This document shows, one piece after another, positions 4,430 to 27,730 of a stretch of DNA of 32,000 bases. The DNA comes from Thermofilum pendens Hrk 5 (GTDB taxonomy: Archaea; Thermoproteota; Thermoprotei; Thermofilales; Thermofilaceae). The notes beneath the pieces are model-generated. The model had not been told where the DNA came from. It did no database searches and saw nothing but the letters and a program-made list of their open reading frames with translations. Each line of letters starts with the position of its first letter. Position 1 is the first letter of the stretch. The translations under genes were made by a program, and so were the position numbers. The stretch covers positions 1,140,001 to 1,172,000 of the forward strand of contig NC_008698.1 of assembly GCF_000015225.1 (NCBI RefSeq), given 5' to 3'.

Positions 4430-5834
4430 GACCAGCCTGCTGGAGAGCCTCAGCCTCGGCGAGGTAAGCCTGGACGCGTTGAGGCTTAAGCCTAGGATCA
4501 CGCTTAAAGGTAGGATCTCGCGTAGCCTCGTGGAGGAGATCTCGCGCTCGAAAGGAGAGCCCGAGTGGATGCTGAGGCTACGCTTGCGGAGCCTAGAGCT
4601 CTTCGAGAAGCTCCCGGAGCCGAACTGGCTCGTCGGCGTCGACGAGCTAGACCTCGAGGAGCTCGCCCACTACGTGCACCCGGACGTCGAGAGGGTGTCT
4701 CGCTGGGAGGACTTGCCGGAGGACGTCAGGAAGGTGTACGAGAGGCTCGGGTTGCCGGAGATAGAGAGGCGCGTGCTCTCAGGGCTCGCAGCACAGCTGG
4801 AGAGCGAGAACGTATACCTGGCCTTCAAGAAGTTCCTGGAGAAGCAGGGGGTAATACTGATGGATATGAGCGAGGCGGTCCAGAGGTACCCCGACCTCGT
4901 GAAGAAGTACTTCATGAGGGTCTTCCCGCCGAGCGACCACAAGTTTGCCGCGTTGCACGGCGCCCTCTGGAGCGGGGGAGTCTTCCTCTACGTCCCGCCA
5001 AACGTAAGGATAGAGGCACCGATAGAGGCGTTCTTCTTCATAGCCAGCGAGCTGGAGAGCCAGATGGAGCACACGATAGTAGTAGCCGACGAGGGGAGCT
5101 TCGTACACTTCATCGAGGGTTGCGCGGCGCCCATGTTCAAGAAGTACAGCTTCCACAACGGAATGGTAGAGGTCTACGCCCACAAGGGTTCACACGTGAA
5201 GTTCACGACTGCCCAGAACTGGAGCAAGAACCTCGTGAACTTCAACAACAAGAGGGCTCTCGTCGAGGAGGGGGCGGTCGTCGAGTGGGTGGAGGGTAGC
5301 ATTGGGAGCAAGGTGAGCTACGTCTACCCCTCGGCGATCCTCAGAGGCGCGAATGCGCGCGTATCGATAACGAACATAACCCTCGCGAAGGGACCCGTGT
5401 GGAAGGACGGAGGGGCAAAGGTGTACCACTTGGCGCCCTCCACGAGTAGCGAGGTGGTAAGCAAGAGTATAAGCGCGGACGGGGGCACAGCTGTCTACAG
5501 GGGCCTAGTGAAGGTCGCGAGGGGCGCCCGGGGCTCCACGGCGGCGGTCAAGTGCGACAGCCTCATACTCGACAAGAAGTCCAAGGCCCTCACCTACCCG
5601 AGGAACGAGGTCGACGAGGAGGACTCCACCGTGGTCCACGAGGCGACGACCGGGAGGCTAAGCGAGGAGGCTCTCTTCTACCTGAAGACCAGGGGTCTCA
5701 GCGAGTCCGAAGCCAGGAGGCTCGTAGTACTGGGCTACGTCGGGGACGTGCTCGGGAAGCTCCCCTTCGAGTACCAGGTGGTATTCCGGAGAGTACTCGA
5801 GCTAGAATTCGAGGAAATAGGTGGCTACGCGTGA
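4422..5834 (+). CDS. sufB: Fe-S cluster assembly scaffold SufB
   Basis: 470 aa. GTG start overlaps the sufC stop by 8 nt. Conserved SufB blocks include FIEGCAAP, AQNWSKNLVNFNNKRA and LFYLKTRGLSESEARRLVV. Confidence 0.92.
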   Translation: MSKTSLLESLSLGEVSLDALRLKPRITLKGRISRSLVEEISRSKGEPEWMLRLRLRSLELFEKLPEPNWLVGVDELDLEELAHYVHPDVERVSRWEDLPEDVRKVYERLGLPEIERRVLSGLAAQLESENVYLAFKKFLEKQGVILMDMSEAVQRYPDLVKKYFMRVFPPSDHKFAALHGALWSGGVFLYVPPNVRIEAPIEAFFFIASELESQMEHTIVVADEGSFVHFIEGCAAPMFKKYSFHNGMVEVYAHKGSHVKFTTAQNWSKNLVNFNNKRALVEEGAVVEWVEGSIGSKVSYVYPSAILRGANARVSITNITLAKGPVWKDGGAKVYHLAPSTSSEVVSKSISADGGTAVYRGLVKVARGARGSTAAVKCDSLILDKKSKALTYPRNEVDEEDSTVVHEATTGRLSEEALFYLKTRGLSESEARRLVVLGYVGDVLGKLPFEYQVVFRRVLELEFEEIGGYA

Positions 5835-6925
5835 AGGTAGCCTACGAGAACCTCCCGTACCAGCACGTGGCCGACTCGCCCGCGACGAAGCACTACGCTA
5901 ACTGGGAGGTCTTCGAGGAGTACGTGGCCAGGCGGGAAAGGGCGTCCAGGCTCGGCGTCGACGCGGGGCTCCTGGTGCTCCGGCCAGACGTAACCCTGTC
6001 CCCAGGCACCGTGGGCGTGGAGGACGAGCCCTCCTGGCCCCTACCCGTGGACACGAAGCTACCGGCGTTCCACTTCTCGAACCTCGCCTCCTCGCTGAGC
6101 CTAGAACTCTCCGGCGAGAAGCTCGTCGTGGCAGTAGAGAAGCCCCTCGAAGGCTTCTACTCGGCACACCTGAACGTGAGGCTCCGGGGCTCCTCCTCGC
6201 TTATCCTCGTCTCCCTGGCGCCCCCAGAGGCGGCGGGGCTCTCGACGCTATCTCTGAACGTCTCCGTCGAGGAGGGCTCCAGGTCGCGTCTCGAGGTAAT
6301 ACTGTTCGACTCGGGAAGCTCGGCGACCGCGTTGATGGCCGTGGCCCGGCTAGGGGAAGGCTCGGCGCTCCAGGAATCGGTAGTCGCCGTGTCGGGCAGA
6401 GCCCTCTACGCGGACCTAAAGGCCTCGCTTAGAGGAGGAGGCTCGTCGCTGGACAGTTCGATACTCGCCGTGTCCCCGCGGGAGGCTCACGCAAGCCTCA
6501 ACACGGATGTAGCGGTAGAGTCGCCGCGCTCATCCGCCCTCATCAGGCTCGTAGGAGCCTCGGCGGACGGCTTCCTGGCGCACAAGGGGGCAGTGAAGAT
6601 AGTCAGAGGCTCCGTGAACGCCCGGGGAAGGCTCTCATCGAGGCTAATACCCCTCACCCCCTCCTCCAAGGTCTACGCCTCCCCCACCCTCGAGATAGAG
6701 TCTGACGACGCGGAAGAAGCCCAGCACTCGGCGTCCCAAAGCCCGGTAGACCCCCAGAGGATATTCTACCTCAGGAGCAGGGGCTTCACGGAGCAAGAGG
6801 CGCTCCGCCTCGCCCTGAAGGCAGAGGCCTTCAAGGCGTTCGAGGGAAGAAGCCCGAATGGCTACGTGCTGTTCTACATCGAGGAAGCCCTGAAGGCCGC
6901 GTTGCGAAGCGTCTCGGCTGGCTAG
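5831..6925 (+). CDS. sufD: Fe-S cluster assembly protein SufD (short, divergent)
   Basis: The in-frame GTG at 5831 forms a GTGA overlap with the sufB stop. The track ORF 5552-6925 has an R/G-rich N-terminal extension that lies inside sufB, and I discard it. The C-terminal block IFYLRSRGFTEQEALRLAL is typical of SufD. Confidence 0.8.
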   Translation: MKVAYENLPYQHVADSPATKHYANWEVFEEYVARRERASRLGVDAGLLVLRPDVTLSPGTVGVEDEPSWPLPVDTKLPAFHFSNLASSLSLELSGEKLVVAVEKPLEGFYSAHLNVRLRGSSSLILVSLAPPEAAGLSTLSLNVSVEEGSRSRLEVILFDSGSSATALMAVARLGEGSALQESVVAVSGRALYADLKASLRGGGSSLDSSILAVSPREAHASLNTDVAVESPRSSALIRLVGASADGFLAHKGAVKIVRGSVNARGRLSSRLIPLTPSSKVYASPTLEIESDDAEEAQHSASQSPVDPQRIFYLRSRGFTEQEALRLALKAEAFKAFEGRSPNGYVLFYIEEALKAALRSVSAG

Positions 6926-7000
6926 CGAACTAAAAAACTTTGAATCGAAGGGAGGCCGTAAGGGTCTATGCTTTTAAGCATTTTCCGCAAGGTTAATAGG

Positions 7001-7012
7001 AGTTATAATTTC
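7001..7012 (+). promoter_or_regulatory. TATA-like box (agttataatttc) for the sugar ABC operon
   Basis: Centred about 25 nt upstream of ATG 7031, which argues against the longer ORF start at 6968. Confidence 0.4.
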
Positions 7013-7030
7013 CAAGGGTTAACGATAAAA

Positions 7031-8098
7031 ATGTCCCAGCAGAAAACCGGCCCAGCCGGCAAGACCCTGGCTGTAGCGGTCGTGATAGGCCTTCTCATCG
7101 GCGCAGTAATCGGCTACGGGATCGCCGCGGCAACCATGGTTCCCTACTCCAAGTACGCCGAGCTCGAAAAGAAGCTCGAACAGCTACAAGCCGGCGCCGC
7201 CGCCCCGGAGTACACGTTCTACTACGTCTCCCACGGAGGCCCCGCTGACCCGTGGTGGGCCCCAGTAATCAAGGGATCCCAGGACGCGGCGAGGCTCCTC
7301 AACGTGAAGGTCGTGTACAGCGGGCCCGAGAAGTTCAGCATACAGGCCCTGGTCGACCTGCTGAACAGTGCTATCGCGGCTAAGCCTCAGGGCATTATAC
7401 TCACGATCACGGACTACAAGGCGCTCGACGAGCCGGCGAGGAGGGCTATCGCGCAGGGAATACCCATAATTGCCGTCAACGTCCCTGACCCCAGGCCGCC
7501 GAACGAGAGGATACCCTACCTTAGCTACGTCGGGCAGAACGAGTACGACGCTGGCTACTACCTAGCCAAGTACCTTGTAGACAAGGGCTACAAGCCGAAG
7601 CGCGTAGTGATAGGGATACACGAGGTAGGGCACATAGGTCTCGAGACAAGGGCGAAGGGGATAACCGACGCGATCACCCAGGCGTACCCGGGGACACCCG
7701 TCGAGAAGCTCGACATAACGACGGACCCGACGAAGGCCGCGGAGGTCTTTAAGAGCTACCTAACCGCGCACCCGGACACCGACGTCATATTCACGCTCGG
7801 ACCCCTCGGGGCCCACCCGGCGCTCCAGGTTCTCCGCGAGATGAAGCTAACGGGCAAGGTCCACCTCCTAACCGTCGATATCGACAACGTGATACTTAAA
7901 GCCATAGAGGCTGGAGAGCTCGACGCGGCTGTAAGCCAGCAGCCCTACGCGCAGGGCTTCCTGCCCGTAGTCTTCATGTACCTCTACGTGAAGTACGGGA
8001 TAATCCCGCCGCCCCAGGTGCCGACAGGGCCCACCGTTATCGACAAGGCGAAGCTGGAGACCGTGAAGAAGCAGATAGCGACGACAGGGGGAGCCTAA
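7031..8098 (+). CDS. Sugar ABC transporter substrate-binding protein (CUT2 / Peripla_BP_4-like), membrane-anchored
   Basis: N-terminal TM anchor KTLAVAVVIGLLIGAVIGYGIAAA, followed by a periplasmic-binding-protein type I pattern (FYYVSHGGPADPWWAPVIKG...GIILTITD...IPIIAVNVPD). Start moved to ATG 7031 because of the promoter position. Confidence 0.85.
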   Translation: MSQQKTGPAGKTLAVAVVIGLLIGAVIGYGIAAATMVPYSKYAELEKKLEQLQAGAAAPEYTFYYVSHGGPADPWWAPVIKGSQDAARLLNVKVVYSGPEKFSIQALVDLLNSAIAAKPQGIILTITDYKALDEPARRAIAQGIPIIAVNVPDPRPPNERIPYLSYVGQNEYDAGYYLAKYLVDKGYKPKRVVIGIHEVGHIGLETRAKGITDAITQAYPGTPVEKLDITTDPTKAAEVFKSYLTAHPDTDVIFTLGPLGAHPALQVLREMKLTGKVHLLTVDIDNVILKAIEAGELDAAVSQQPYAQGFLPVVFMYLYVKYGIIPPPQVPTGPTVIDKAKLETVKKQIATTGGA

Positions 8099-8101
8099 AA
8101 A

Positions 8102-8116
8102 TTTGTTTTTCTTTTT
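8102..8116 (+). terminator. T-rich tract (tttgtttttcttttt) after the binding-protein gene; possible partial intra-operon terminator
   Basis: An oligo-T run directly follows the stop at 8096-8098. Archaeal termination is oligo-T driven. Such a site would let the binding protein be expressed above the permease and ATPase. Confidence 0.35.
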
Positions 8117-8132
8117 CCCCTGGTGACCGGGT

Positions 8133-9119
8133 ATGGCTACACGGGCAGAGGGTCTGCGTAAAGCCGGTTTCCTGGCGCAACACCCGGAGATAGGGGTTGT
8201 CTCGAGCTTTTTCTCGATAGCCGCTGTTTTCCTCGTGCTCGTCCCGGACAAGTTCCTAACGCTACCTACGTTCTACAGCATACTCACGCTCGCAGGCGAG
8301 CTCGGCGTCGTGAGCCTCGGGGTAGCGTTCCTCATGATCACCGGGGAGTTCAACCTGTCCGTGAGCTCCGTCTACGCCCTCGTGCCCATGGGGGTAGCCA
8401 TCATGGCGAACATGGGTGTAGACATGTTGCTAGCATCCGTGGTTATGCTCGCGCTCGCGTACGGGATAGGGGTACTCGTCGGCTACGTGACCATAAAGAC
8501 AGGGATACCGAGCTTCATAACGTCGCTCGGCATGATGATGTTCCTGCGCGGCATACTGCTAGCAATCACGGGCGGCTTCCCCGTCAGGCTCGAGCACGAC
8601 CACTGGCTCATGTACGCCCTCAACGGCCCAGTCGGGGAGCAGGGGCTCAGGACGAGCGCCGCGTGGCTCGTAGCACTCACCGCGCTGCTAGCGTTCATCC
8701 TCGACTGGACCCCCTACGGCAACTGGACGTACGCCGTGGGGGCGAGCCCGAACACGGCTAGGGAGCTGGGAGTCTCCGTCACGAAGGTCAAGCTCCTGAA
8801 CTTCGGCCTCTCGTCCCTGCTAGCGGGGCTCGCGGGGCTAATGGCGCTGAGCAGGTTCAAGGTCGTAGACCCCACGCTGGGGCAAGGCCTGGAGCTGGAA
8901 GCCATAACGTCCGCGGTACTCGGGGGGTGCCTGCTCACCGGGGGTTACGGCAGCATAACGGGGACCTTCCTCGGAGCCTTCCTCATAGCCATGACGCGCG
9001 TCGGGCTCGTCCTCGCGAAGGCGCCCGCCTACTGGTACAGCGCGTTCATAGGAGTGATACTGATAGTAGCCACCGTGATAAACATATTCGTGGTGAGGAA
9101 GTACGTAGCCGGTGGGTGA
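8133..9119 (+). CDS. Sugar ABC transporter permease (RbsC/BPD_transp_2-like)
   Basis: 328 aa, about 9-10 TM helices. LMITGEFNLSVSSVYAL corresponds to the GGIDLSVG block of CUT2 permeases. Confidence 0.87.
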   Translation: MATRAEGLRKAGFLAQHPEIGVVSSFFSIAAVFLVLVPDKFLTLPTFYSILTLAGELGVVSLGVAFLMITGEFNLSVSSVYALVPMGVAIMANMGVDMLLASVVMLALAYGIGVLVGYVTIKTGIPSFITSLGMMMFLRGILLAITGGFPVRLEHDHWLMYALNGPVGEQGLRTSAAWLVALTALLAFILDWTPYGNWTYAVGASPNTARELGVSVTKVKLLNFGLSSLLAGLAGLMALSRFKVVDPTLGQGLELEAITSAVLGGCLLTGGYGSITGTFLGAFLIAMTRVGLVLAKAPAYWYSAFIGVILIVATVINIFVVRKYVAGG

Positions 9120-9903
9120 GAGCGTGGCGGAGCCGTTGCTGGAGATGAGGGGGATAGTGAAGAGGTTCGGCAGGGTGGAGGCGCTTAGAGGCGTAGACTT
9201 CCACGTCGGCAGAGCCGAGGTGGTCGGGCTAGTCGGCGACAACGGGGCGGGGAAGTCCACCCTCGTGAAGATAATCGCCGGCGTCTACCAGCCGGACGCC
9301 GGGCAGATGTTCTTCGAGGGGCAACCCGTCGTGTTCAGGCACCCGAGCGAGGCTAGGGCTAGGGGCATAGAGATAGTCTACCAGCACCTCGCGCTGATAG
9401 ACTTGCTGAGCATAGACAGGAACATATTCCTCGGAAGGGAGCCCACCAAGAGGATAGGCCCAATAGCGATCCTAGACAAGGCGAGGATGGAGAGGGAGGC
9501 GTGGAGCATACTGCAGGACATCGGGCTTAGGAGGATCCGCTCGCCGTCTGAGAGAGTAGCGAAGCTCAGCGGGGGAGAGAGGCAGAGCGTGGCTATAGGG
9601 AGAGCCATGCACTTCAAGGCAAAGCTACTAATACTCGACGAGCCGACAGCCGCCCTCTCGGTGCGCGAAACGCGGAGAGTGCTCGACCACGTACTAGAGG
9701 TCAAGAAGCAGGGAGTAAGCGTCATAATAATCTCCCACAACATCTACCACGTCTACGAGGTATCCGACAGGATAGTAGCACTGGACCACGGCAGAAAGAT
9801 ACTCGACGTGCCAAGGGAGAAGGTTACCCCCGAGGAAGTAATAGACGTAATCAGGACGGGAGCCCCCGCCACCCCACAGCCAGAAGAAAACCAGCGCGTA
9901 TAA
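9112..9903 (+). CDS. Sugar ABC transporter ATP-binding protein (single nucleotide-binding domain)
   Basis: 263 aa. Walker A GDNGAGKST, signature LSGGERQSVAIGRA, Walker B LLILDEPTAAL. GTG start overlaps the permease stop by 8 nt. Confidence 0.9.
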   Translation: MGESVAEPLLEMRGIVKRFGRVEALRGVDFHVGRAEVVGLVGDNGAGKSTLVKIIAGVYQPDAGQMFFEGQPVVFRHPSEARARGIEIVYQHLALIDLLSIDRNIFLGREPTKRIGPIAILDKARMEREAWSILQDIGLRRIRSPSERVAKLSGGERQSVAIGRAMHFKAKLLILDEPTAALSVRETRRVLDHVLEVKKQGVSVIIISHNIYHVYEVSDRIVALDHGRKILDVPREKVTPEEVIDVIRTGAPATPQPEENQRV

Positions 9904-9924
9904 ACGAATCGCGTATAAACGAAA
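9895..9924 (+). repeat. Tandem 15-bp duplication cgcgtataaacgaaT / cgcgtataaacgaaA spanning the ATPase stop codon
   Basis: Read directly. The copies at 9895-9909 and 9910-9924 differ only at the last base, and each carries an in-frame CGC GTA TAA. Confidence 0.9.
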
Positions 9925-9926
9925 AG

Positions 9927-9953
9927 CATATATTATTCGCCGTTACTAACGGC
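9927..9953 (+). promoter_or_regulatory. TATA-like box (catatattatt, 9927-9937) followed by a perfect 7-bp-arm palindrome gccgtta-c-taacggc (9939-9953)
   Basis: The box is centred about 24 nt upstream of ATG 9956. The palindrome sits over the expected transcription start, the position expected for an operator. Confidence 0.4.
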
Positions 9954-9955
9954 AC

Positions 9956-10156
9956 ATGTCTGCGGAAGGCGAAAAATTCTCGCTAGTAGCTACGTTCGAC
10001 CCGGCAACGCAGAAACTAGTCATCGAGTTCCACCCGGCGACCTCGGAGCCCCCGGACGCCACCCTCTCCTGGGCTGAGGGGAGGCCCTCCCGGCTCGTGA
10101 TACACGACTACAAGAGCTTCCTCTGTAAAATACTCGAAGAAGTGTTGCGCCGCTAA
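9956..10156 (+). CDS. Small hypothetical protein (66 aa)
   Basis: ATG ORF with its own TATA-like box and G/C-biased third codon positions. No recognisable motif. Confidence 0.5.
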   Translation: MSAEGEKFSLVATFDPATQKLVIEFHPATSEPPDATLSWAEGRPSRLVIHDYKSFLCKILEEVLRR

Positions 10157-10162
10157 GGGCGG

Positions 10163-11581
10163 CTAGGCTAGCTCGGCGACCTCTCGGAGGACTTCCCACA
10201 CAGTCTTCTCCCACTCAGCGGAAGGCTTCAGGCTCTTCAAGTCGTAGAGCTCCCAGAACGGCTTCCCGGGGTTCGGGCTGGAAAGCTTGTCGGCGTACTT
10301 CTCGTACAGCTCCAGAGCGGCGGACCACGCCGCGCCCACGCTCACCTTTTTCTCGGCGACGAGGTCCGCCAGGCTCGCGACGAACCACGACTCGAAGCCA
10401 CCGCCGTTCGGCTGGGTCCCGTTCGCCGGTACGGGTCCAAGCACGTTGAGCCCCGACGCTACGGCGACGAACGTGTTGGCGGCCGCCTCGTAGAGGTACT
10501 CTCTCGTGCCGCCCCCGTTGGCAGGCCAGATGTCTGCCACGACCGGGAGTCCCATGTACCTGTTCGCGAGGCCGACGACGGACTCTACCCACATGCATTC
10601 AAGCGTCGAGGTCGCCTTCCTCAGTATGTGAACCGGGTGCACCAGGAAGTAGCCAGCCTCGTAAGCGACCAGCGCGAGGAGAGTCTCGGCGACGCTGACG
10701 ATAGCGGAGCCCGCGGGCCCCCTCGCGTACCCGCCCACCACGGGGTCTACCAGGGCGGCCCCTATGAGCCCCCTCGCTAGCCCGACGTACGCCTTAGTCA
10801 ACTGACCATAGTCCGTTTTAAGCTCGTTAAGCACGGGGAGCAACTGGGCGTCCCCCTCTCCCAGGAGCCCGAGGGAGAGGGCGGAGAGGCTCCCCACCGA
10901 GGACACGCTACTCTCAGCCCCCAGTACGTGCATACCGGGCCTCCCGACAGCCCGCAGAGCCCTCCTAACCCCCTCAGCCTCCTCGATACCCGCCAGCGCC
11001 TCGCTCGGCGCGTAGCCCCGCACAGCCTCCCCCGCTACAGCCTGGATGCTCCCGTGGTCCAAGGCGTCTACCCTCGGCACAGCGGCGTACGAAGCCGCGG
11101 ACGCCTCGAAGAACTCCAGAGGGACGGGCGTCCCCGCAAGGCCCCCGAACACGAAGACCCTGTCCCCCGGGCCCCTCGCTCGGAGCACCCTCTCGTCCTT
11201 GCCGCGCCCGACCCTGAGCTCCCTCGGGGCGTTCCTCAAAGCCTCCCTGACCTCCTCCTCGGTGAACCTCGCAACGCGCGACTCGTCGACCACGTAGAGC
11301 CCCGTCTCGACGGCGAGGGTGAACCCAGCCTCGAAGACGGGTTTAGCCAGGTCCTCGCTGGGAGCCGGGCTCGACGGGTCGAAGCTAACCCCGTACTCCT
11401 TCTCCAGCTCGGCGACCCTCCTGGAAACCCTCTCCAAGTCGAACCTCTTCTGCTCTACGTACTCCCCCTTCCTCGCCCTCAGCTCTACGAGGAGCGGCCC
11501 CCTCACGCTGTGGAAAACGCTCCGCGAGCTTATATACTTGAAGCGCGTGCTCTGCGTAGCTCCTCTACGAGCTTCGCACAC
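10163..11581 (-). CDS. MtmB-family (monomethylamine methyltransferase-like) protein lacking pyrrolysine
   Basis: 472-aa ORF, colinear with my recollection of Methanosarcina barkeri MtmB across its whole length. Matching blocks include GRPGMHVLGAESS versus GRPGMGV-Pyl-GPETS, LNELKTDY versus LNELKIDL, and LYEKY..PGKPFWELYDLKSLKPSAEW versus LYEKNY..AGKTFQECYDVKTVTPTEEY. The start is uncertain: GTG 11581 overlaps the corrinoid gene by 52 nt, while an alternative GTG at 11506 lies 24 nt downstream of that gene's stop. Confidence 0.8.
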   Translation of the reverse strand: MCEARRGATQSTRFKYISSRSVFHSVRGPLLVELRARKGEYVEQKRFDLERVSRRVAELEKEYGVSFDPSSPAPSEDLAKPVFEAGFTLAVETGLYVVDESRVARFTEEEVREALRNAPRELRVGRGKDERVLRARGPGDRVFVFGGLAGTPVPLEFFEASAASYAAVPRVDALDHGSIQAVAGEAVRGYAPSEALAGIEEAEGVRRALRAVGRPGMHVLGAESSVSSVGSLSALSLGLLGEGDAQLLPVLNELKTDYGQLTKAYVGLARGLIGAALVDPVVGGYARGPAGSAIVSVAETLLALVAYEAGYFLVHPVHILRKATSTLECMWVESVVGLANRYMGLPVVADIWPANGGGTREYLYEAAANTFVAVASGLNVLGPVPANGTQPNGGGFESWFVASLADLVAEKKVSVGAAWSAALELYEKYADKLSSPNPGKPFWELYDLKSLKPSAEWEKTVWEVLREVAELA

Positions 11582-12213
11582 TTCTCCACGGCGTCCACCG
11601 CGTCCCTGCCGTAGGCGTCCGCGCCTATCTCCCTCGCGATCTCCTCGGTTACGGGGGCTCCCCCCACTATCACCTTGACCTTGTCCCTGAGGCCCGCCGC
11701 CTTCAACGCGTCTATAACGTTCCTCATCTCCAGCATCGTGGTAGTGAGGAGAGCGCTCATACCGACAACCTCCGCCCCGTACTTCTCGACCGCCTCCACG
11801 AACCTCTCGGGCGGCACGTCCACCCCGAGGTCCACCACCTCGAAGCCGTTAACCCTGAGCATAGTGGCGACGAGGTTCTTGCCGATATCGTGTATATCCC
11901 CGCGCACCGTCCCTATCACCACGCGCCCCCTAACGCCGGCCCGGGAGCCCTTAAGCCTCGGCAACACGTACTTCTCCATCACCGAGTTGAATATGTCCCC
12001 AGCCTCGACGAGCTCCGGGAGGAAGTACTCGCCTCTCTCAAACCTAACGCCGACCTCCACCATCCCCTTTCTCAACCCCTCCTCGACGACCTCCACGACG
12101 TCGCAGCCAGCCTCGAGAGCCTCGGAGACCAGGCGCTCGACAGTCCCGGCGTCCAGGTCGGCGAGCCTCCTCGAGATCTCCGCGTAGACACCCCTGCAGT
12201 CCACGGGGATCAC
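11530..12213 (-). CDS. Cobalamin-binding corrinoid protein (MtmC/MtbC/MttC-like)
   Basis: 227 aa. N-terminal helical cap domain plus a B12-binding Rossmann domain with GDIHDIGKNLV (DxHxxG), MSALLTTT (SxL) and VIVGGAP (GG). The GTG start forms a GTGA overlap with the upstream small ORF. Confidence 0.88.
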   Translation of the reverse strand: MIPVDCRGVYAEISRRLADLDAGTVERLVSEALEAGCDVVEVVEEGLRKGMVEVGVRFERGEYFLPELVEAGDIFNSVMEKYVLPRLKGSRAGVRGRVVIGTVRGDIHDIGKNLVATMLRVNGFEVVDLGVDVPPERFVEAVEKYGAEVVGMSALLTTTMLEMRNVIDALKAAGLRDKVKVIVGGAPVTEEIAREIGADAYGRDAVDAVEKCAKLVEELRRARASSI

Positions 12214-12524
12214 TCCAGTATCAAGACAACCCTCTCGGGCACGAACCTCAGCTCCTCCCCCTCCCTGAGGAAGCGGTAGGCAACCCTAGCCCCTCCCTCG
12301 AACTCCTCCACGTCTACCACGCCGACGCGTACACCCCTTTCCGCGACCATCAACGCGAAGTCCTCGAAGTAGTCGTAGAAGCCGCAAGTCACGCAGAAGC
12401 TACCCACGAACTCGGCGACAAAGCCGTCCCCACGCCACTCCACGACCCTCACCTGCCCCTCGCTACCGTGAAGCCTGTTAAACTCCTCCACAGCCTCCTC
12501 AACGGCTACGCGAGCCTCAACCAC
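12210..12524 (-). CDS. Small CxxC protein (about 105 aa), possibly an Nfu/NifU-C-like fold
   Basis: Frame of track ORF 12210-12614. That ORF begins with TTG and overlaps the pilin-like gene, so I prefer the in-frame GTG at 12524. Contains GSFCVTCG. Its stop overlaps the corrinoid gene start (GTGA at 12210-12213). Confidence 0.5.
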   Translation of the reverse strand: MVEARVAVEEAVEEFNRLHGSEGQVRVVEWRGDGFVAEFVGSFCVTCGFYDYFEDFALMVAERGVRVGVVDVEEFEGGARVAYRFLREGEELRFVPERVVLILE

Positions 12525-12540
12525 GCCGCAAGAAACGAGC

Positions 12541-12553
12541 AGAAAAAGAAAAA
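12541..12553 (-). terminator. Oligo-T tract (minus sense tttttctttttct) just downstream of the pilin-like gene
   Basis: Plus strand reads agaaaaagaaaaa at 12541-12553, 8 nt after the stop at 12562-12564. Confidence 0.35.
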
Positions 12554-12561
12554 CCTTACTC

Positions 12562-13005
12562 TTACCCTCTGTACGTGAATACGTAGGAAGCCTTAGTGCC
12601 GTACTTCGTGACAACCTCGACAGTATAGGTATTACCGGCTGTTAGAGTGACAGAAGTAGTCACCGTACTGACTTGTCCAGGACTAATTACTACGGGAGTT
12701 GCAAGTTGATAATTATTATTATTACTGTTTATTATTGTTCCTGAACCGTTAAAGACGTAGATCGTGGTGATGTTAACCTTTACATCTCCAACGTTTCTCA
12801 CGTATGCGGTTAACGTAGTGCCATTGTAGCTTACTGCTTCTATTGCGATTCTCTCTTGTAGCTGGGTTGTGCTTGCTTGCTGTGTGAGGGTTCCTTGGTA
12901 CCCGGTGATCCAGATGTACGCTAGGACTGCCGCGGCTACTGCTATGACTATTAGGAGTAGTGTTGCTATTACGGGGCTTACGCCCCTCTTTTTCATCGTT
13001 TTCAC
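12562..13005 (-). CDS. Archaeal type IV pilin-like protein with class III signal peptide (DUF361 / archaellin-N-terminal-like)
   Basis: MKTMKKRG|VSPVIATLLLIVIAVAAAVLAYIW is the canonical prepilin-peptidase (PibD/FlaK) substrate N-terminus. The rest is a T/N/V-rich beta-type domain. GTG at 13005 or ATG at 12996. The TATA-like box (minus sense cgtatataaag, plus 13029-13039) sits about 29 nt upstream of GTG 13005 and about 38 nt upstream of ATG 12996. Confidence 0.8.
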   Translation of the reverse strand: MKTMKKRGVSPVIATLLLIVIAVAAAVLAYIWITGYQGTLTQQASTTQLQERIAIEAVSYNGTTLTAYVRNVGDVKVNITTIYVFNGSGTIINSNNNNYQLATPVVISPGQVSTVTTSVTLTAGNTYTVEVVTKYGTKASYVFTYRG

Positions 13006-24845: not shown

Positions 24846-26177
24846 ATGCCGGAAGAGTTTGAACCTTACGGCGAATTTGTGGTCAAGAGCTACCTGCCGG
24901 ATCCCGATAAAGACGTCATTGTCACATTTAGGGTTACTCCGAGCGAGGGCTTCACAATAGAGGACGCAGCGGGAGGCGTAGCCGCGGAGAGCAGCGTCGG
25001 CACGTGGACTACCCTGTACCAGTGGTACGATAAGAGCAGGATCGACAGGCTCAAGGGGAAGGCTTACTACATGGAGAGCCTGGGCGACGGGTCATACATC
25101 CTCCGGGTCGCGTACCCCGTCGAGCTGTTCGAAGAGGGGAACATGCCGGCCTTCCTGGCGTCCGTTGCCGGCAACATTTTCGGCATGAGGAGGGTCCGCT
25201 CCCTGAGGGTTGAGGACATATACTTGCCCGAAGCCTTCCTGAAGCACTTCAAGGGCCCCTCGCAGGGCGTCGAGGGTGTACGCGGGAAGCTGAAGATCTG
25301 GGGGAGGCCCATAATAGGCACCGTGCCGAAGCCGAAGGTCGGGTACTCCCCCGAGGAGGTCGAGAAGCTGGCCTACGAGATACTGGTCGGGGGCATGGAC
25401 TTCGTGAAGGACGACGAGAACCTGGCGGGCCCGAGCTACTGCAGGTTCGAGGAGAGGGCTAAGGCGATAATGAAGGCGATAGACAGGGCCGAAAAGGAGA
25501 CGGGCGAGAGGAAGGCCTGGCTCGCCAACATAACGGCGGACGTCAGGGAGATGGAGCGCAGGCTTAAGCTTGTAGCGGAGCTCGGCAACACGCACGTCAT
25601 GGTCGACGTGGTGATAGCGGGCTGGTCCTCCCTGACGTACGTAAGGGATCTAGCCGCGGACTACAAGCTGGCGATACACGGGCACAGGGCTTTCCACGCC
25701 GCCTTCACCCGGAACCCCTACCACGGTGTATCGATGTTCACCCTCGCGAAGCTGTACAGGATAATCGGCGTCGACCAGCTACACGTAGGGACACCGGAGG
25801 TCGGCAAGCTGGAGGCGAAAGCCGTAGACGTGATCAGGATGGCGCGCCTACTCAGGGAGCAGACGTACAAGCCAGACATTGAGGACGGGCTCCACATGCA
25901 GCAACCATTCCCCGGGATAAAGCCGGCTTTCCCCGTCTCCAGCGGAGGCCTCCACCCGGGCACGCTACCCGCTGTCATCAAGGCTATGGGCGTAGACACC
26001 GTCATCCAGGTTGGAGGGGGCGTTGTAGGGCACCCCGACGGACCGAGGGCGGGCGCCGCCGCGGCTAGGCAGGCTGTAGAAGCGTACCTCGAGGGAGTCC
26101 CGCTACAGGAGTACGCGAAGACGCACAGAGAGCTTGCAAGAGCCCTCGAGAAATGGGGGCAAGTGATACCCGTCTAG
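24846..26177 (+). CDS. rbcL: Ribulose-1,5-bisphosphate carboxylase/oxygenase large subunit, form III
   Basis: 443 aa, near-colinear with my recollection of Thermococcus form III RbcL. Blocks: AAESSVGTWTT, GTVPKPKVGYSP, FVKDDENL (carbamylated Lys), AIHGHRAFHAAFTRNPYHG, PVSSGGLHPG, VGGGVVGHPDG, ELARALEKWG. Confidence 0.95.
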   Translation: MPEEFEPYGEFVVKSYLPDPDKDVIVTFRVTPSEGFTIEDAAGGVAAESSVGTWTTLYQWYDKSRIDRLKGKAYYMESLGDGSYILRVAYPVELFEEGNMPAFLASVAGNIFGMRRVRSLRVEDIYLPEAFLKHFKGPSQGVEGVRGKLKIWGRPIIGTVPKPKVGYSPEEVEKLAYEILVGGMDFVKDDENLAGPSYCRFEERAKAIMKAIDRAEKETGERKAWLANITADVREMERRLKLVAELGNTHVMVDVVIAGWSSLTYVRDLAADYKLAIHGHRAFHAAFTRNPYHGVSMFTLAKLYRIIGVDQLHVGTPEVGKLEAKAVDVIRMARLLREQTYKPDIEDGLHMQQPFPGIKPAFPVSSGGLHPGTLPAVIKAMGVDTVIQVGGGVVGHPDGPRAGAAAARQAVEAYLEGVPLQEYAKTHRELARALEKWGQVIPV

Positions 26178-27730
26178 GCGCGGACGACGCTTTCCCGCCG
26201 CCTCTCTAGGGCTTGCTTTTCTTCGAAGAGTTGCTTGATCTCCTCGTCAATCCTCGACGCTCTACGCTCAACGTAGGATATGAAGGCCTCGAGGAAGAAC
26301 CTTAAAGGCGCCATGTGCGCCCCCTTGAGGTAGAACTTGCCCATTATCTCCCGGGCCCAGTAGAGGTCGTGCCTCAAGCAAGCCTTCATGACCTCTACGT
26401 GCTCCCTGGTTATCATCTCCCTCCTGAACTTCTCCATGTTCTTCAGCTTCCCCATGGGGACGAAGAGCATGGGCACTATGAGGCTCCTGTAGGGCTTCAA
26501 GTCGTCGACGAGCTCCGCGGTCTTGACGACGTCGTCCGGGGTCTCGCCGGGTAGCCCGAGTATAAGCGTAGCCGCTGGGACAACCCTGTTGTCGTGCATT
26601 ATCGCGAAGGCGTCCTTCACGACCTCCACCCACTCCTCCGCCCTGTAGGGTAGCGCCTTCGCCGGCATGACCTCCCTCGCCAATCTCGCGCTACCCGTCT
26701 CTATCCCGACCTCCACCCCAAGTATCTCCTGCCTCTCGCTCAGCATCTCCATTAATCGCGATACCAGCCTGTAGTTATCCTCGGCGTACTTCACGGCGGA
26801 TAGGCTTGCGTGGGACCACGCGACGCTGCCGGGTGCCTCTTTGAGCACCTCGGCGTGGAGCTTTAGGACGGGCTCGGGCCTCGGCTTTACGCCGTCGGCG
26901 CCGTAGAGCAGGACGTCCTCGCTGTGTAGCAGGACGTTCCTCAGCCCAGCCCTCACGTTGACCCTGACCTCCGCCACAACCTTCTCTATGGGCATGAACC
27001 TCAGGGGTCTCAGCGTCACGGAGCAGAACCTGCAGCCCCTGGGGCAACCCCTCATTATCTCTACCAGCCCGTTGACGCTGGCGCCCCTGATCACCGGTAT
27101 CTCCTCTATGCTTGGAGCGTCGCGGGGGCTCACGTAGACGTACTCTGGGAGCGGCTCCCCCCTGTAAACCTTCTCGACTAGGTCCACGACGACCCCCTCA
27201 CCCTCCCCGTCGACGACGGTGTCCACGCCCCACTTCTTCCAGCTCTCCAGCTCCCAGAGCCACTGCCACGCCGCGGGCCCCCCGGCGATTATCTTCACGC
27301 CTTTCTCCTTCGCCTTGCGCACAGCGGGGGACTCCATGAGCCTCCTGAAGCTCCTCCTGTTAACAGGCTCCCTGCCCGTGATAACCCACCACTCGCTGCT
27401 CGGCGGGCCGTAAGCAAAGTAGTCGTGGTGCCCCACTAGGAGCACCTTCATAGTGTCCAAGTGCTTGTCCAAGTGGTCTGGGTCGACGATGGCGGCGTTG
27501 AAGCCAGCCTCCTGGAGCTTCGCCTCTATCTTCCTGAGCCCGTAGGGCGCTACGCGCGGCCTGCCGAGCCTGTCGACCTTGGGCTTCGGGCAGCACGCCC
27601 ACATCCAGAGCCTCTCCGGGACCCCTATAGCGGGCCCAGTGGCCATGAAGCCTATGAACTCCTTGCCGTGGTGGTCCGTTATCATTGTCCTATCGGACGT
27701 TATAACTACCTCGAAAACCACCGACGTCAC
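26174..27730 (-). CDS. Radical SAM enzyme with an N-terminal B12-binding-like domain (COG1032 / class B-like)
   Basis: 518 aa. CxxxCxxC as RGCPRGCRFCS (codons at 27023-27046, checked on the DNA), preceded by an alpha/beta domain of about 220 aa, the usual position of the cobalamin-binding domain. GTG start forms a GTGA overlap with the upstream 95-aa gene. Its 3' end overlaps the rbcL stop by 4 nt (convergent). Confidence 0.87.
   Translation of the reverse strand: MTSVVFEVVITSDRTMITDHHGKEFIGFMATGPAIGVPERLWMWACCPKPKVDRLGRPRVAPYGLRKIEAKLQEAGFNAAIVDPDHLDKHLDTMKVLLVGHHDYFAYGPPSSEWWVITGREPVNRRSFRRLMESPAVRKAKEKGVKIIAGGPAAWQWLWELESWKKWGVDTVVDGEGEGVVVDLVEKVYRGEPLPEYVYVSPRDAPSIEEIPVIRGASVNGLVEIMRGCPRGCRFCSVTLRPLRFMPIEKVVAEVRVNVRAGLRNVLLHSEDVLLYGADGVKPRPEPVLKLHAEVLKEAPGSVAWSHASLSAVKYAEDNYRLVSRLMEMLSERQEILGVEVGIETGSARLAREVMPAKALPYRAEEWVEVVKDAFAIMHDNRVVPAATLILGLPGETPDDVVKTAELVDDLKPYRSLIVPMLFVPMGKLKNMEKFRREMITREHVEVMKACLRHDLYWAREIMGKFYLKGAHMAPLRFFLEAFISYVERRASRIDEEIKQLFEEKQALERRRESVVRA

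Follow-up and report, generated by a model that had tools for sequence, protein, structure and literature searches.

A pyrrolysine-free MtmB homologue and its cognate corrinoid protein in Thermofilum pendens as the predicted first half of a methyl-transfer system

Pyrrolysine (Pyl) in the methyltransferase MtmB forms an adduct with methylamine, which leucine cannot do. Homologues of the methylamine methyltransferases that lack the amber codon have been noted in bacteria and in a few non-methanogenic archaea; Thermofilum pendens was named among them for the trimethylamine type, and examples of the monomethylamine (MMA) type were called rarer (Rother & Krzycki 2010, PMC2933860). Such amber-less homologues have a hydrophobic amino acid in place of Pyl and, in the words of the same authors, “will not have similar chemistry” (PMC2933860). 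One Pyl-free MtmB homologue, MtqB of Methanococcoides methylutens Q3c, was found to use tetramethylammonium and choline as methyl donors for its corrinoid partner, with no more than trace activity on MMA, and was placed near the Pyl-MtmBs by its authors (Kashyap et al. 2026, PMC13044021). On the acceptor side, core-MetE enzymes use methylcobalamin rather than methylfolate as the methyl donor (Deobald et al. 2020, PMC7005905). Here, we analyzed a stretch of 32,000 nucleotides from T. pendens Hrk 5 (NC_008698.1, positions 1,140,001 to 1,172,000; “the window”, whose own numbering is used below), in which three closely packed minus-strand genes encode, in this order, a small CxxC protein, a corrinoid protein and an MtmB homologue. 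The locus was shown to encode the predicted first half of a corrinoid-dependent methyl-transfer system, namely an MtmB-fold first methyltransferase (MT1) with Leu in place of Pyl and a His-on corrinoid carrier. It is highly probable from the sequence evidence that the two would act as a functional Pyl-free pair. The existence of the gene adds nothing new, because it is publicly annotated and noted in the literature, and the Pyl-free MtmBs are a large, long-known family. The T. pendens genome paper of 2008 reportedly lists, in its abstract, a monomethylamine:corrinoid methyltransferase as a novel feature. In a literature search on Thermofilum with monomethylamine, MtmB, corrinoid or methylamine, Rother & Krzycki 2010 was the sole relevant result. 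An earlier reading of this stretch from its letters alone (the sequence-only reading) had taken the non-Pyl relatives of MtmB to be uncharacterized, a view that the tetramethylammonium/choline function of MtqB overturns (PMC13044021).

The MT1 candidate (10163..11506, minus strand, 447 amino acids (aa)) matched the Pfam family MtmB (PF05369) over profile positions 9-444 of 450, with 234.8 bits against a cut-off of 25 and an E value of 2.3e-69, so that it stood above the gathering score as a full-length member of the MtmB superfamily. A phmmer comparison with M. barkeri MtmB1 (PDB 1L2Q/1NTH) gave an E value of 3.6e-51, in which residues 35-459 of the 472-aa maximal open reading frame (ORF) matched chain residues 15-442 of 458 in one colinear stretch, at an identity of about 30%. 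The end-to-end colinearity asserted by the sequence-only reading was borne out, and each peptide pairing that it quoted recurred in the HMMER alignment to 1L2Q/1NTH. In this alignment, the Leu in GRPGMHVLGAESS was aligned with Pyl202 of M. barkeri MtmB (GRPGMGV-X-GPETS). This residue, Leu195 in the 447-aa numbering, is encoded by CTG (10922..10924, minus strand, read from 10924 to 10922), and reading the frame codon by codon revealed no in-frame TAG at the Pyl position, as had been proposed from the letters alone. The sole TAG in the frame is the stop codon at 10163-10165 (minus strand), which has no bearing on Pyl. A strictly Pyl-dependent MtmB (EC 2.1.1.248) carries UAG at residue 202, and the T. 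pendens protein is not of this kind. Across an alignment of 151 sequences that included M. barkeri MtmB, the Pyl column was occupied mainly by L, I, V or G, and R196, G198, D226, E235, K237 and G265-G266 were near-universal. Hydrophobic residues also replaced E229 and E259 of M. barkeri MtmB, both of which we take to lie near Pyl.

The protein is 100% identical to the T. pendens entry WP_011752874.1 (ABL78609.1, UniProt A1RZH9), whose database name is “monomethylamine:corrinoid methyltransferase”. It is very improbable that this name is literally right and that the enzyme is a genuine MMA methyltransferase working without Pyl. The Leu in place of Pyl202 cannot form the methylamine adduct, E229 and E259 have turned hydrophobic, and neither pyl genes nor a tRNA were found in the window. 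The full-length homology to MtmB, the database name and the small residual MMA activity of MtqB (PMC13044021) favor a literal reading of the name, but amber-less homologues have been predicted to be without similar chemistry (PMC2933860).

The gene upstream encodes a cognate corrinoid protein of 227 aa (11530..12213, minus strand) of the base-off/His-on type. The Pfam search that the sequence-only reading had put forward as a check, and that gave the MtmB match above, also returned the helical cap domain B12-binding_2 (PF02607, E 1.4e-17) and the Rossmann domain B12-binding (PF02310, E 4.6e-31). The His-on motifs were found as DIHDIG at residue 106 and SAL...VGG from residue 153, in agreement with the DxHxxG, SxL and GG signature and the helical cap recognized earlier. 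The model TIGR02370 (“methyltransferase cognate corrinoid protein”) scored 203.3 bits, narrowly below its cut-off of 215.3. The MtgC and MtbC models scored the protein about equally, the mutase models scored much lower, and none of the substrate-specific equivalog cut-offs of the NCBIfam models was reached. The closest PDB matches were 1Y80, MttC (7XCN) and MtmC (3EZX), with the mutases far weaker. A mutase-type identity, which the sequence-only reading had named as a possible refutation, was rejected because the mutase models and structures scored far lower than those of the methyltransferase type. The protein is, by these matches, a predicted methylotrophic-type methyl carrier, cognate to the MtmB homologue.

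The arrangement of the three genes was as described from the letters alone, with close packing on the minus strand, a GTGA overlap at 12210-12213 and a corrinoid stop codon at 11530-11532. The GTG at 12524 starts the CxxC gene (12210..12524, minus strand, 104 aa; maximal ORF 12210-12614), and its stop codon TGA shares letters with the GTG start of the corrinoid gene in the overlap at 12213-12210, through which the two genes are predicted to be translationally coupled. The corrinoid gene ends with TAA at 11532-11530. Both methyltransferase starts that had been suggested exist in the sequence. The first, a GTG at 11506, lies 23 nt past the corrinoid stop and is preceded by GGAG; the second, an alternative GTG at 11581, overlaps the corrinoid gene and opens the maximal ORF of 472 aa (10163-11581, minus strand). 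The homologues are 447-457 aa long, their alignments begin at residues 1-4, and the T. pendens database protein has 447 aa. Because the database protein and all homologues fit 447 aa, the start at 11506 was preferred and is probably the true one, and the 472-aa form, with an unconserved extension of 25 aa, was rejected.

Related loci and metagenome contigs (designated by L numbers) were used for comparison. Against the orthologues in L040, L027 and L055, the ratio of nonsynonymous to synonymous substitution rates (dN/dS), with synonymous sites saturated in these comparisons, was below 0.08 for the MtmB homologue, 0.10-0.22 for the corrinoid gene and 0.05-0.16 for the CxxC gene; these values therefore indicate purifying selection on all three genes. 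In many T. pendens-like contigs, where the proteins were 72-78% identical in amino-acid sequence, the ORFs were intact.

To place the MtmB homologue in its family, a profile of 15 Thermofilaceae-type sequences was compared with 1.84 billion representative proteins (50% identity clusters), which yielded 1,240 representatives with E values up to 1e-3, of which 314 were at or below 1e-30. The top 150 were mostly uninterrupted proteins of about 455 aa, and most of them are therefore Pyl-free. The nearest relatives of the T. pendens protein were in Thermofilaceae (50-74% identity), followed at 37-44% by Odinarchaeota, Baldrarchaeota, Ignisphaera and other representatives. The signature RPG[MLI]H[VLI][LI][GA][GA]ESS was common to these sequences. 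With an identity of about 30% to Pyl-MtmB, the T. pendens clade was no nearer to it than the majority of the family was. These relationships bear on whether the T. pendens pair is equivalent to MtqB/MtqC, that is, a quaternary-amine demethylase of the choline/tetramethylammonium type, used catabolically for carbon, nitrogen or energy. MtqB is the sole characterized Pyl-free MtmB homologue and has the same two-gene layout (PMC13044021), hydrophobic residues stand for Pyl202, E229 and E259, and transporter genes flank homologues in several lineages. However, MtqB is close to the Pyl-MtmBs according to its authors, whereas the T. pendens protein, with an identity of only about 30% to M. barkeri MtmB, joins Odin, Baldr and Ignisphaera sequences in a separate subgroup marked by H-x-[L/I]-x-x-E-S-S. 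Moreover, neither a second methyltransferase (MT2) of the MtbA/MtaA type nor genes of a one-carbon pathway were found in the window, and the acceptor linked to the system in relatives is MetE-like, as described below. Equivalence to MtqB/MtqC is thus considered unlikely.

The gene order pilin-CxxC-corrinoid-MtmB was kept in L017 (74% identity) and in about 12 hot-spring metagenome contigs, and L055 carries CxxC-corrinoid-MtmB. In four further loci (L003, L019, L023 and L024, where the identity of the MtmB homologue is 60-61%), a MetE-like gene followed by a RACo gene runs convergently towards the corrinoid and MtmB genes. In L025 (MtmB 64% identical), the distance from the MetE-like and RACo genes to an MtmB homologue is about 1.4 kb, and no corrinoid gene adjoins this homologue. 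This linkage of RACo and MetE-like genes to MtmB homologues in five Thermofilaceae loci is a new result of the present analysis. The MetE-like genes encode 286-324 aa and the RACo genes about 500 aa; since the two genes overlap or abut, they are probably co-transcribed. The RACo proteins contain the Pfam domains Fer2, Raco_middle and RACo_C_ter, and their top NCBIfam match was the corrinoid activation protein AcsV (163 bits). The MetE-like family is marked by the motif HxC...E...PDCGF, in which H-x-C, E and PDCGF are invariant. Its AlphaFold2 (AF2) model, with a predicted local distance difference test score (pLDDT) of 95, matched the catalytic barrels of MetE best in the PDB (1XPG, E 4e-12, template modeling score about 0.7) and also matched single-domain MetE-like proteins, with URO-D matches much weaker. 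Against the NCBIfam methionine-synthase models, the MetE-like proteins reached 59-62 bits, the cut-off being 258. Taken together, clusters of the L003/L019/L023/L024 type appear to hold an MT1, a carrier, a candidate thiol-methylating MT2 and an activase.

From these data, a scheme of four steps can be proposed. The MT1 would bind a methylated compound other than free MMA, most likely an N-methyl compound; free MMA is disfavored because Leu cannot provide the Pyl chemistry, and MtqB serves as a precedent. The methyl group would then be moved to the Co(I) form of the corrinoid protein to give CH3-Co(III). A zinc methyltransferase of the core-MetE-like type would pass it on to a thiol, most likely homocysteine to yield methionine, and an ATP-dependent RACo-type activase would repair oxidized Co(II). 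The last two steps are proposed because of the gene clusters in the related Thermofilaceae, where the position of the corrinoid-MtmB pair beside MetE-like and RACo genes suggests methyl salvage to methionine. T. pendens is reported to lack most cofactor biosynthesis. The role is likely to be anabolic methyl salvage in a biosynthetically poor heterotroph rather than methanogenesis or energy conservation. We assign a probability of roughly 55% to the scheme as a whole, in which the MT1 and its carrier would feed a MetE-like methyl acceptor with RACo repair for anabolic salvage. The part that concerns T. pendens itself, the coupling to a MetE-like acceptor in this organism, is somewhat more doubtful than that and is put forward tentatively. 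A bolder formulation, in which the Thermofilaceae would possess a four-component methionine synthase made of the MtmB homologue, the corrinoid protein, core-MetE-like protein and RACo, fed by a scavenged N-methyl donor and using no methyl-pterin, is possible but rather unlikely.

Several observations weigh against the salvage scheme. The analysis covered about 42 kb of the 1.8-Mb T. pendens genome (the 32-kb window and 10 kb beyond the window start), and no RACo, MetE-like or URO-D gene was present in it. Among the 44 MetE-like and 41 RACo matches of the family searches, none bore the name of T. pendens; the searches were word-filtered, so that this absence is suggestive and not a proof. The MetE-like gene also occurs apart from MtmB genes, in L020-L022, and the MtmB homologues of Thermofilaceae mostly lack a corrinoid gene within 10 kb. 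In addition, the system is dispensable and has been lost naturally, as shown by deletions in two T. pendens-like contigs, L035 (6300-6890) and L038 (2118-2860). In both, the corrinoid gene is gone and the MtmB gene lacks its first 310-340 codons, a degenerate C-terminal remnant of MtmB (39-43% identity) lying between an intact CxxC gene and an ABC (ATP-binding cassette) transporter.

The same observations raise the question of whether the T. pendens locus is an orphan remnant that kept the MT1, corrinoid and CxxC genes, lost the activase and acceptor, and is now non-functional or works with other partners. The syntenic position of the RACo/MetE-like pair is occupied in T. pendens by an ABC transporter, both family searches were empty for T. 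pendens-named matches, and the losses in L035 and L038 are accompanied by a split MtmB gene in L016. Against such a decay stand the low dN/dS of all three genes and their intact ORFs across many T. pendens-like contigs, and the missing partners are to be judged by the word filter of the searches and by the 42 kb seen. We consider an orphan remnant improbable. The split gene itself (L016:4924-6218, Thermofilum sp. KUA_Bin21) consists of ORFs of 161 and 258 aa and may be a pseudogene or stem from a frameshift or an assembly error.

The absence of partners within the window was established by several searches. Pfam models found no URO-D/MT2, RACo/RamA, MttB or pyl genes among the 28 further ORFs of the window, tblastn found no RACo or MetE-like match in the 32 kb, and thus neither an MT2 nor an activase was recognized there. 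The window likewise contained no tRNA, no pyl Pfam match and no Rfam family. The lack of an MT2, a RamA-type activase and pyl genes in the window, claimed by the sequence-only reading, was reproduced by the Pfam, tblastn and tRNA searches, and the non-methanogenic crenarchaeal setting that it had perceived is that of T. pendens.

The MetE-like gene in L020-L022 (7237-8954) is preceded by a gene for a 240-aa protein with MobB and “FeS” (PF04060) domains and followed by SfsA. PF04060 is found in corrinoid Fe-S proteins too, and the MobB-“FeS” protein might be an alternative partner or activator. A MetE-like protein is also found in Infirmifilum lucidum.

The surroundings of the MtmB homologues differ between lineages. 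The homologue stands alone in L004 and L018. In a subclade with 50-55% identity (L007, L008, L009, L011, L012 and L001/L002/L010), it shares a conserved block with genes for a fused ABC exporter of about 760 aa, for a protein of 197 aa and for a dehydratase of the GD_AH (UxaA) type; no corrinoid gene was found within 10 kb and no Pfam match for the 197-aa protein. The Ignisphaera metagenome-assembled genome (MAG) L014 has two MtmB homologues (6531-9057 and 9253-11332). One of them is located behind a corrinoid gene, and the other, with Lys in the Pyl column (RPGMPIKAGESS), is encoded in one operon together with an ABC ATPase and a binding protein of the Bmp/PnrA type. In L015 (6399-11338, a Baldrarchaeota MAG) and L013 (Odinarchaeota), the MtmB homologue directly follows a complete energy-coupling factor (ECF) transporter, in which the A-A' ATPase is fused, the S component is QueT/MASE1-like and the T component is CbiQ, and is followed by a DUF523/2-thiouracil-desulfurase-like gene; the downstream proteins of Odin and Baldr are 97% identical. 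Neighboring genes were rejected as a clue to the substrate, the context being lineage-dependent (sugar-type ABC, ABC exporter with GD_AH, ECF or Bmp-type ABC).

In L003 (6509-8133) and L024 (3799-5419), the corrinoid and MtmB genes are separated by two extra genes. One encodes a 162-aa S-adenosylmethionine (SAM) methyltransferase that is most similar to aKMT, the archaeal protein-lysine N-methyltransferase (E 5e-26, below cut-off), and the other a 355-aa HisC/CobD-like enzyme of the pyridoxal-phosphate type. Donors of the N-methyl-lysine type, or cobamide remodeling, are speculative ideas that these genes make worth considering. Crenarchaeal proteins are heavily lysine-methylated. It is a more speculative suggestion still that the donor would be a lysine-derived N-methyl amine, for example N-epsilon-methyl-lysine from such proteins; it is made because Pyl-free enzymes are thought to bind mimics of the Pyl-methylamine adduct and because the aKMT-like homologue is one of the genes that separate corrinoid from MtmB in L003 and L024.

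The small CxxC protein carries the motif FCxTCGFYDYF, which was invariant in an alignment of four orthologues. It had no Pfam match. Its AF2 single-sequence model (pLDDT 80) showed an alpha-beta-beta-(CxxC loop)-alpha-beta-beta arrangement for which no PDB fold match was obtained at E<1e-3, and a thioredoxin-like identity was rejected because only a weak ResA match was found (E 0.007) and the fold was without a PDB match. In about 20 loci the gene was conserved in front of the corrinoid gene, and it was retained in L035 and L038, from which the corrinoid and MtmB genes were deleted. A metagenome scan yielded 241 loci homologous to the CxxC gene; a corrinoid gene was nearby only for homologues of at least about 70% identity and in L055, L072, L003 and L024. 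An obligate part in the corrinoid system was rejected, as most of the 241 homologues had no corrinoid or MtmB gene within 6 kb. The surroundings of the remaining homologues were unrelated and included what looks like a fusion to a desulfoferrodoxin-like domain. In L069, L070, L073, L077 and L081 (at about 5600-6280), the CxxC domain forms the C-terminal part of an ORF of about 220 aa whose N-terminal half matches desulfoferrodoxin domains, and these ORFs lie in a conserved block with subunits of succinate dehydrogenase/fumarate reductase, an Ogg glycosylase and QueT. The fusions hint at a redox or metal role of the CxxC family. Because most family members sit apart from corrinoid genes, the CxxC protein is a lineage-specific accessory of the operon and plausibly a metal or redox protein. 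Its membership of the operon, which the sequence-only reading had proposed, thus holds for T. pendens and close relatives, where the gene is co-packed, but not as a defining component of the system.

Upstream of the unit, a T-rich spacer of 37 nt (..GGTTTTTCTTTTTCTGC..; 12525..12561, minus strand) separates the CxxC start from a pilin/archaellin-like gene and is a possible promoter region or transcript boundary of the three-gene unit; the promoter/terminator scan used a bacterial-type model, uninformative for an archaeon. The pilin-like gene (12562-13005, minus strand, 147 aa; Arch_flagellin, E 3.7e-8) is directly upstream of the CxxC gene on the same strand, with a UDP-glucose-dehydrogenase-like gene next to it, also on this strand. 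The pilin-like protein has an N-terminal hydrophobic segment resembling a class-III signal, and the place of its gene beside the unit is probably a matter of synteny only. Downstream, the neighbor of the MtmB homologue is a convergent sugar-type ABC transporter. Between this transporter and the MtmB stop codon lies an ORF of 66 aa (9956-10156, plus strand), preceded by an AT-rich, TATA-like stretch. By eye, it weakly resembles (KLV.E, DYKS) a 74-aa gene at the corresponding position in L017, which seems to have the reverse relative orientation. Farther away in the window, a form-III-type RuBisCO large subunit gene (24846-26177, plus strand) is convergent with the gene for a radical SAM protein with a B12-binding domain (26174-27730, minus strand), another cobalamin-associated gene.

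Only one clade among the approximately 1,240 Pyl-free-type representative clusters has a known substrate. T. pendens, a cultured, genome-sequenced and non-methanogenic hyperthermophile, is a tractable organism for assigning a second function, and candidates for the acceptor and the activase lie next door in its relatives. The linkage to RACo and MetE-like genes provides a concrete, testable hypothesis for the substrate and the acceptor of the Thermofilaceae clade. If the coupling to the MetE-like protein is true, it would explain how the methionine/SAM cycle is kept up in a biosynthetically poor archaeon, and it would supply a natural methyl-corrinoid donor for core-MetE enzymes in a non-methanogen.

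Compared with the known systems, the locus shares features with four of them. Core-MetE together with RACo/RamA/AcsV is resembled by the five Thermofilaceae loci, which carry a single-barrel MetE-like protein of about 310 aa with the zinc-type motif HxC/E/C and a RACo gene, unlike the T. pendens window, which is without both genes. MtgB/MtgC and the other Pyl-free MttB enzymes (COG5598), which demethylate larger N-methyl (quaternary-amine) compounds, are similar in concept, as a Pyl-free homologue is combined with a corrinoid protein, and the T. pendens corrinoid protein scores as well on MtgC as on MtbC models. Unlike MtgB, the T. pendens MT1 is an MtmB, which belongs to another superfamily, and no MttB gene was found in the window. 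With M. barkeri MtmB1/MtmC, T. pendens shares PF05369, a colinear match of about 430 residues, the motifs GRPGM, LNELK and GGY and the C-terminal LYEK...GK.F.E.YD, and a cognate His-on corrinoid protein encoded directly upstream. It differs from the M. barkeri system by the Leu (CTG) in place of the UAG-encoded Pyl202, by the hydrophobic residues at E229/E259, and by its host, a non-methanogenic member of the Thermoproteota in which MtbA, RamA and pyl genes are not nearby. MtqB/MtqC operates in a methanogen with MtbA/MtqA and RamA, unlike the T. pendens pair, and is placed near the Pyl-MtmBs by its authors, whereas the clade of the T. pendens protein comprises sequences of Thermofilaceae, Odin, Baldr and Ignisphaera. 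Both systems nevertheless consist of a Pyl-free member of the MtmB superfamily with an adjoining corrinoid gene, and in the case of MtqB this protein is the MT1 of a three-component system.

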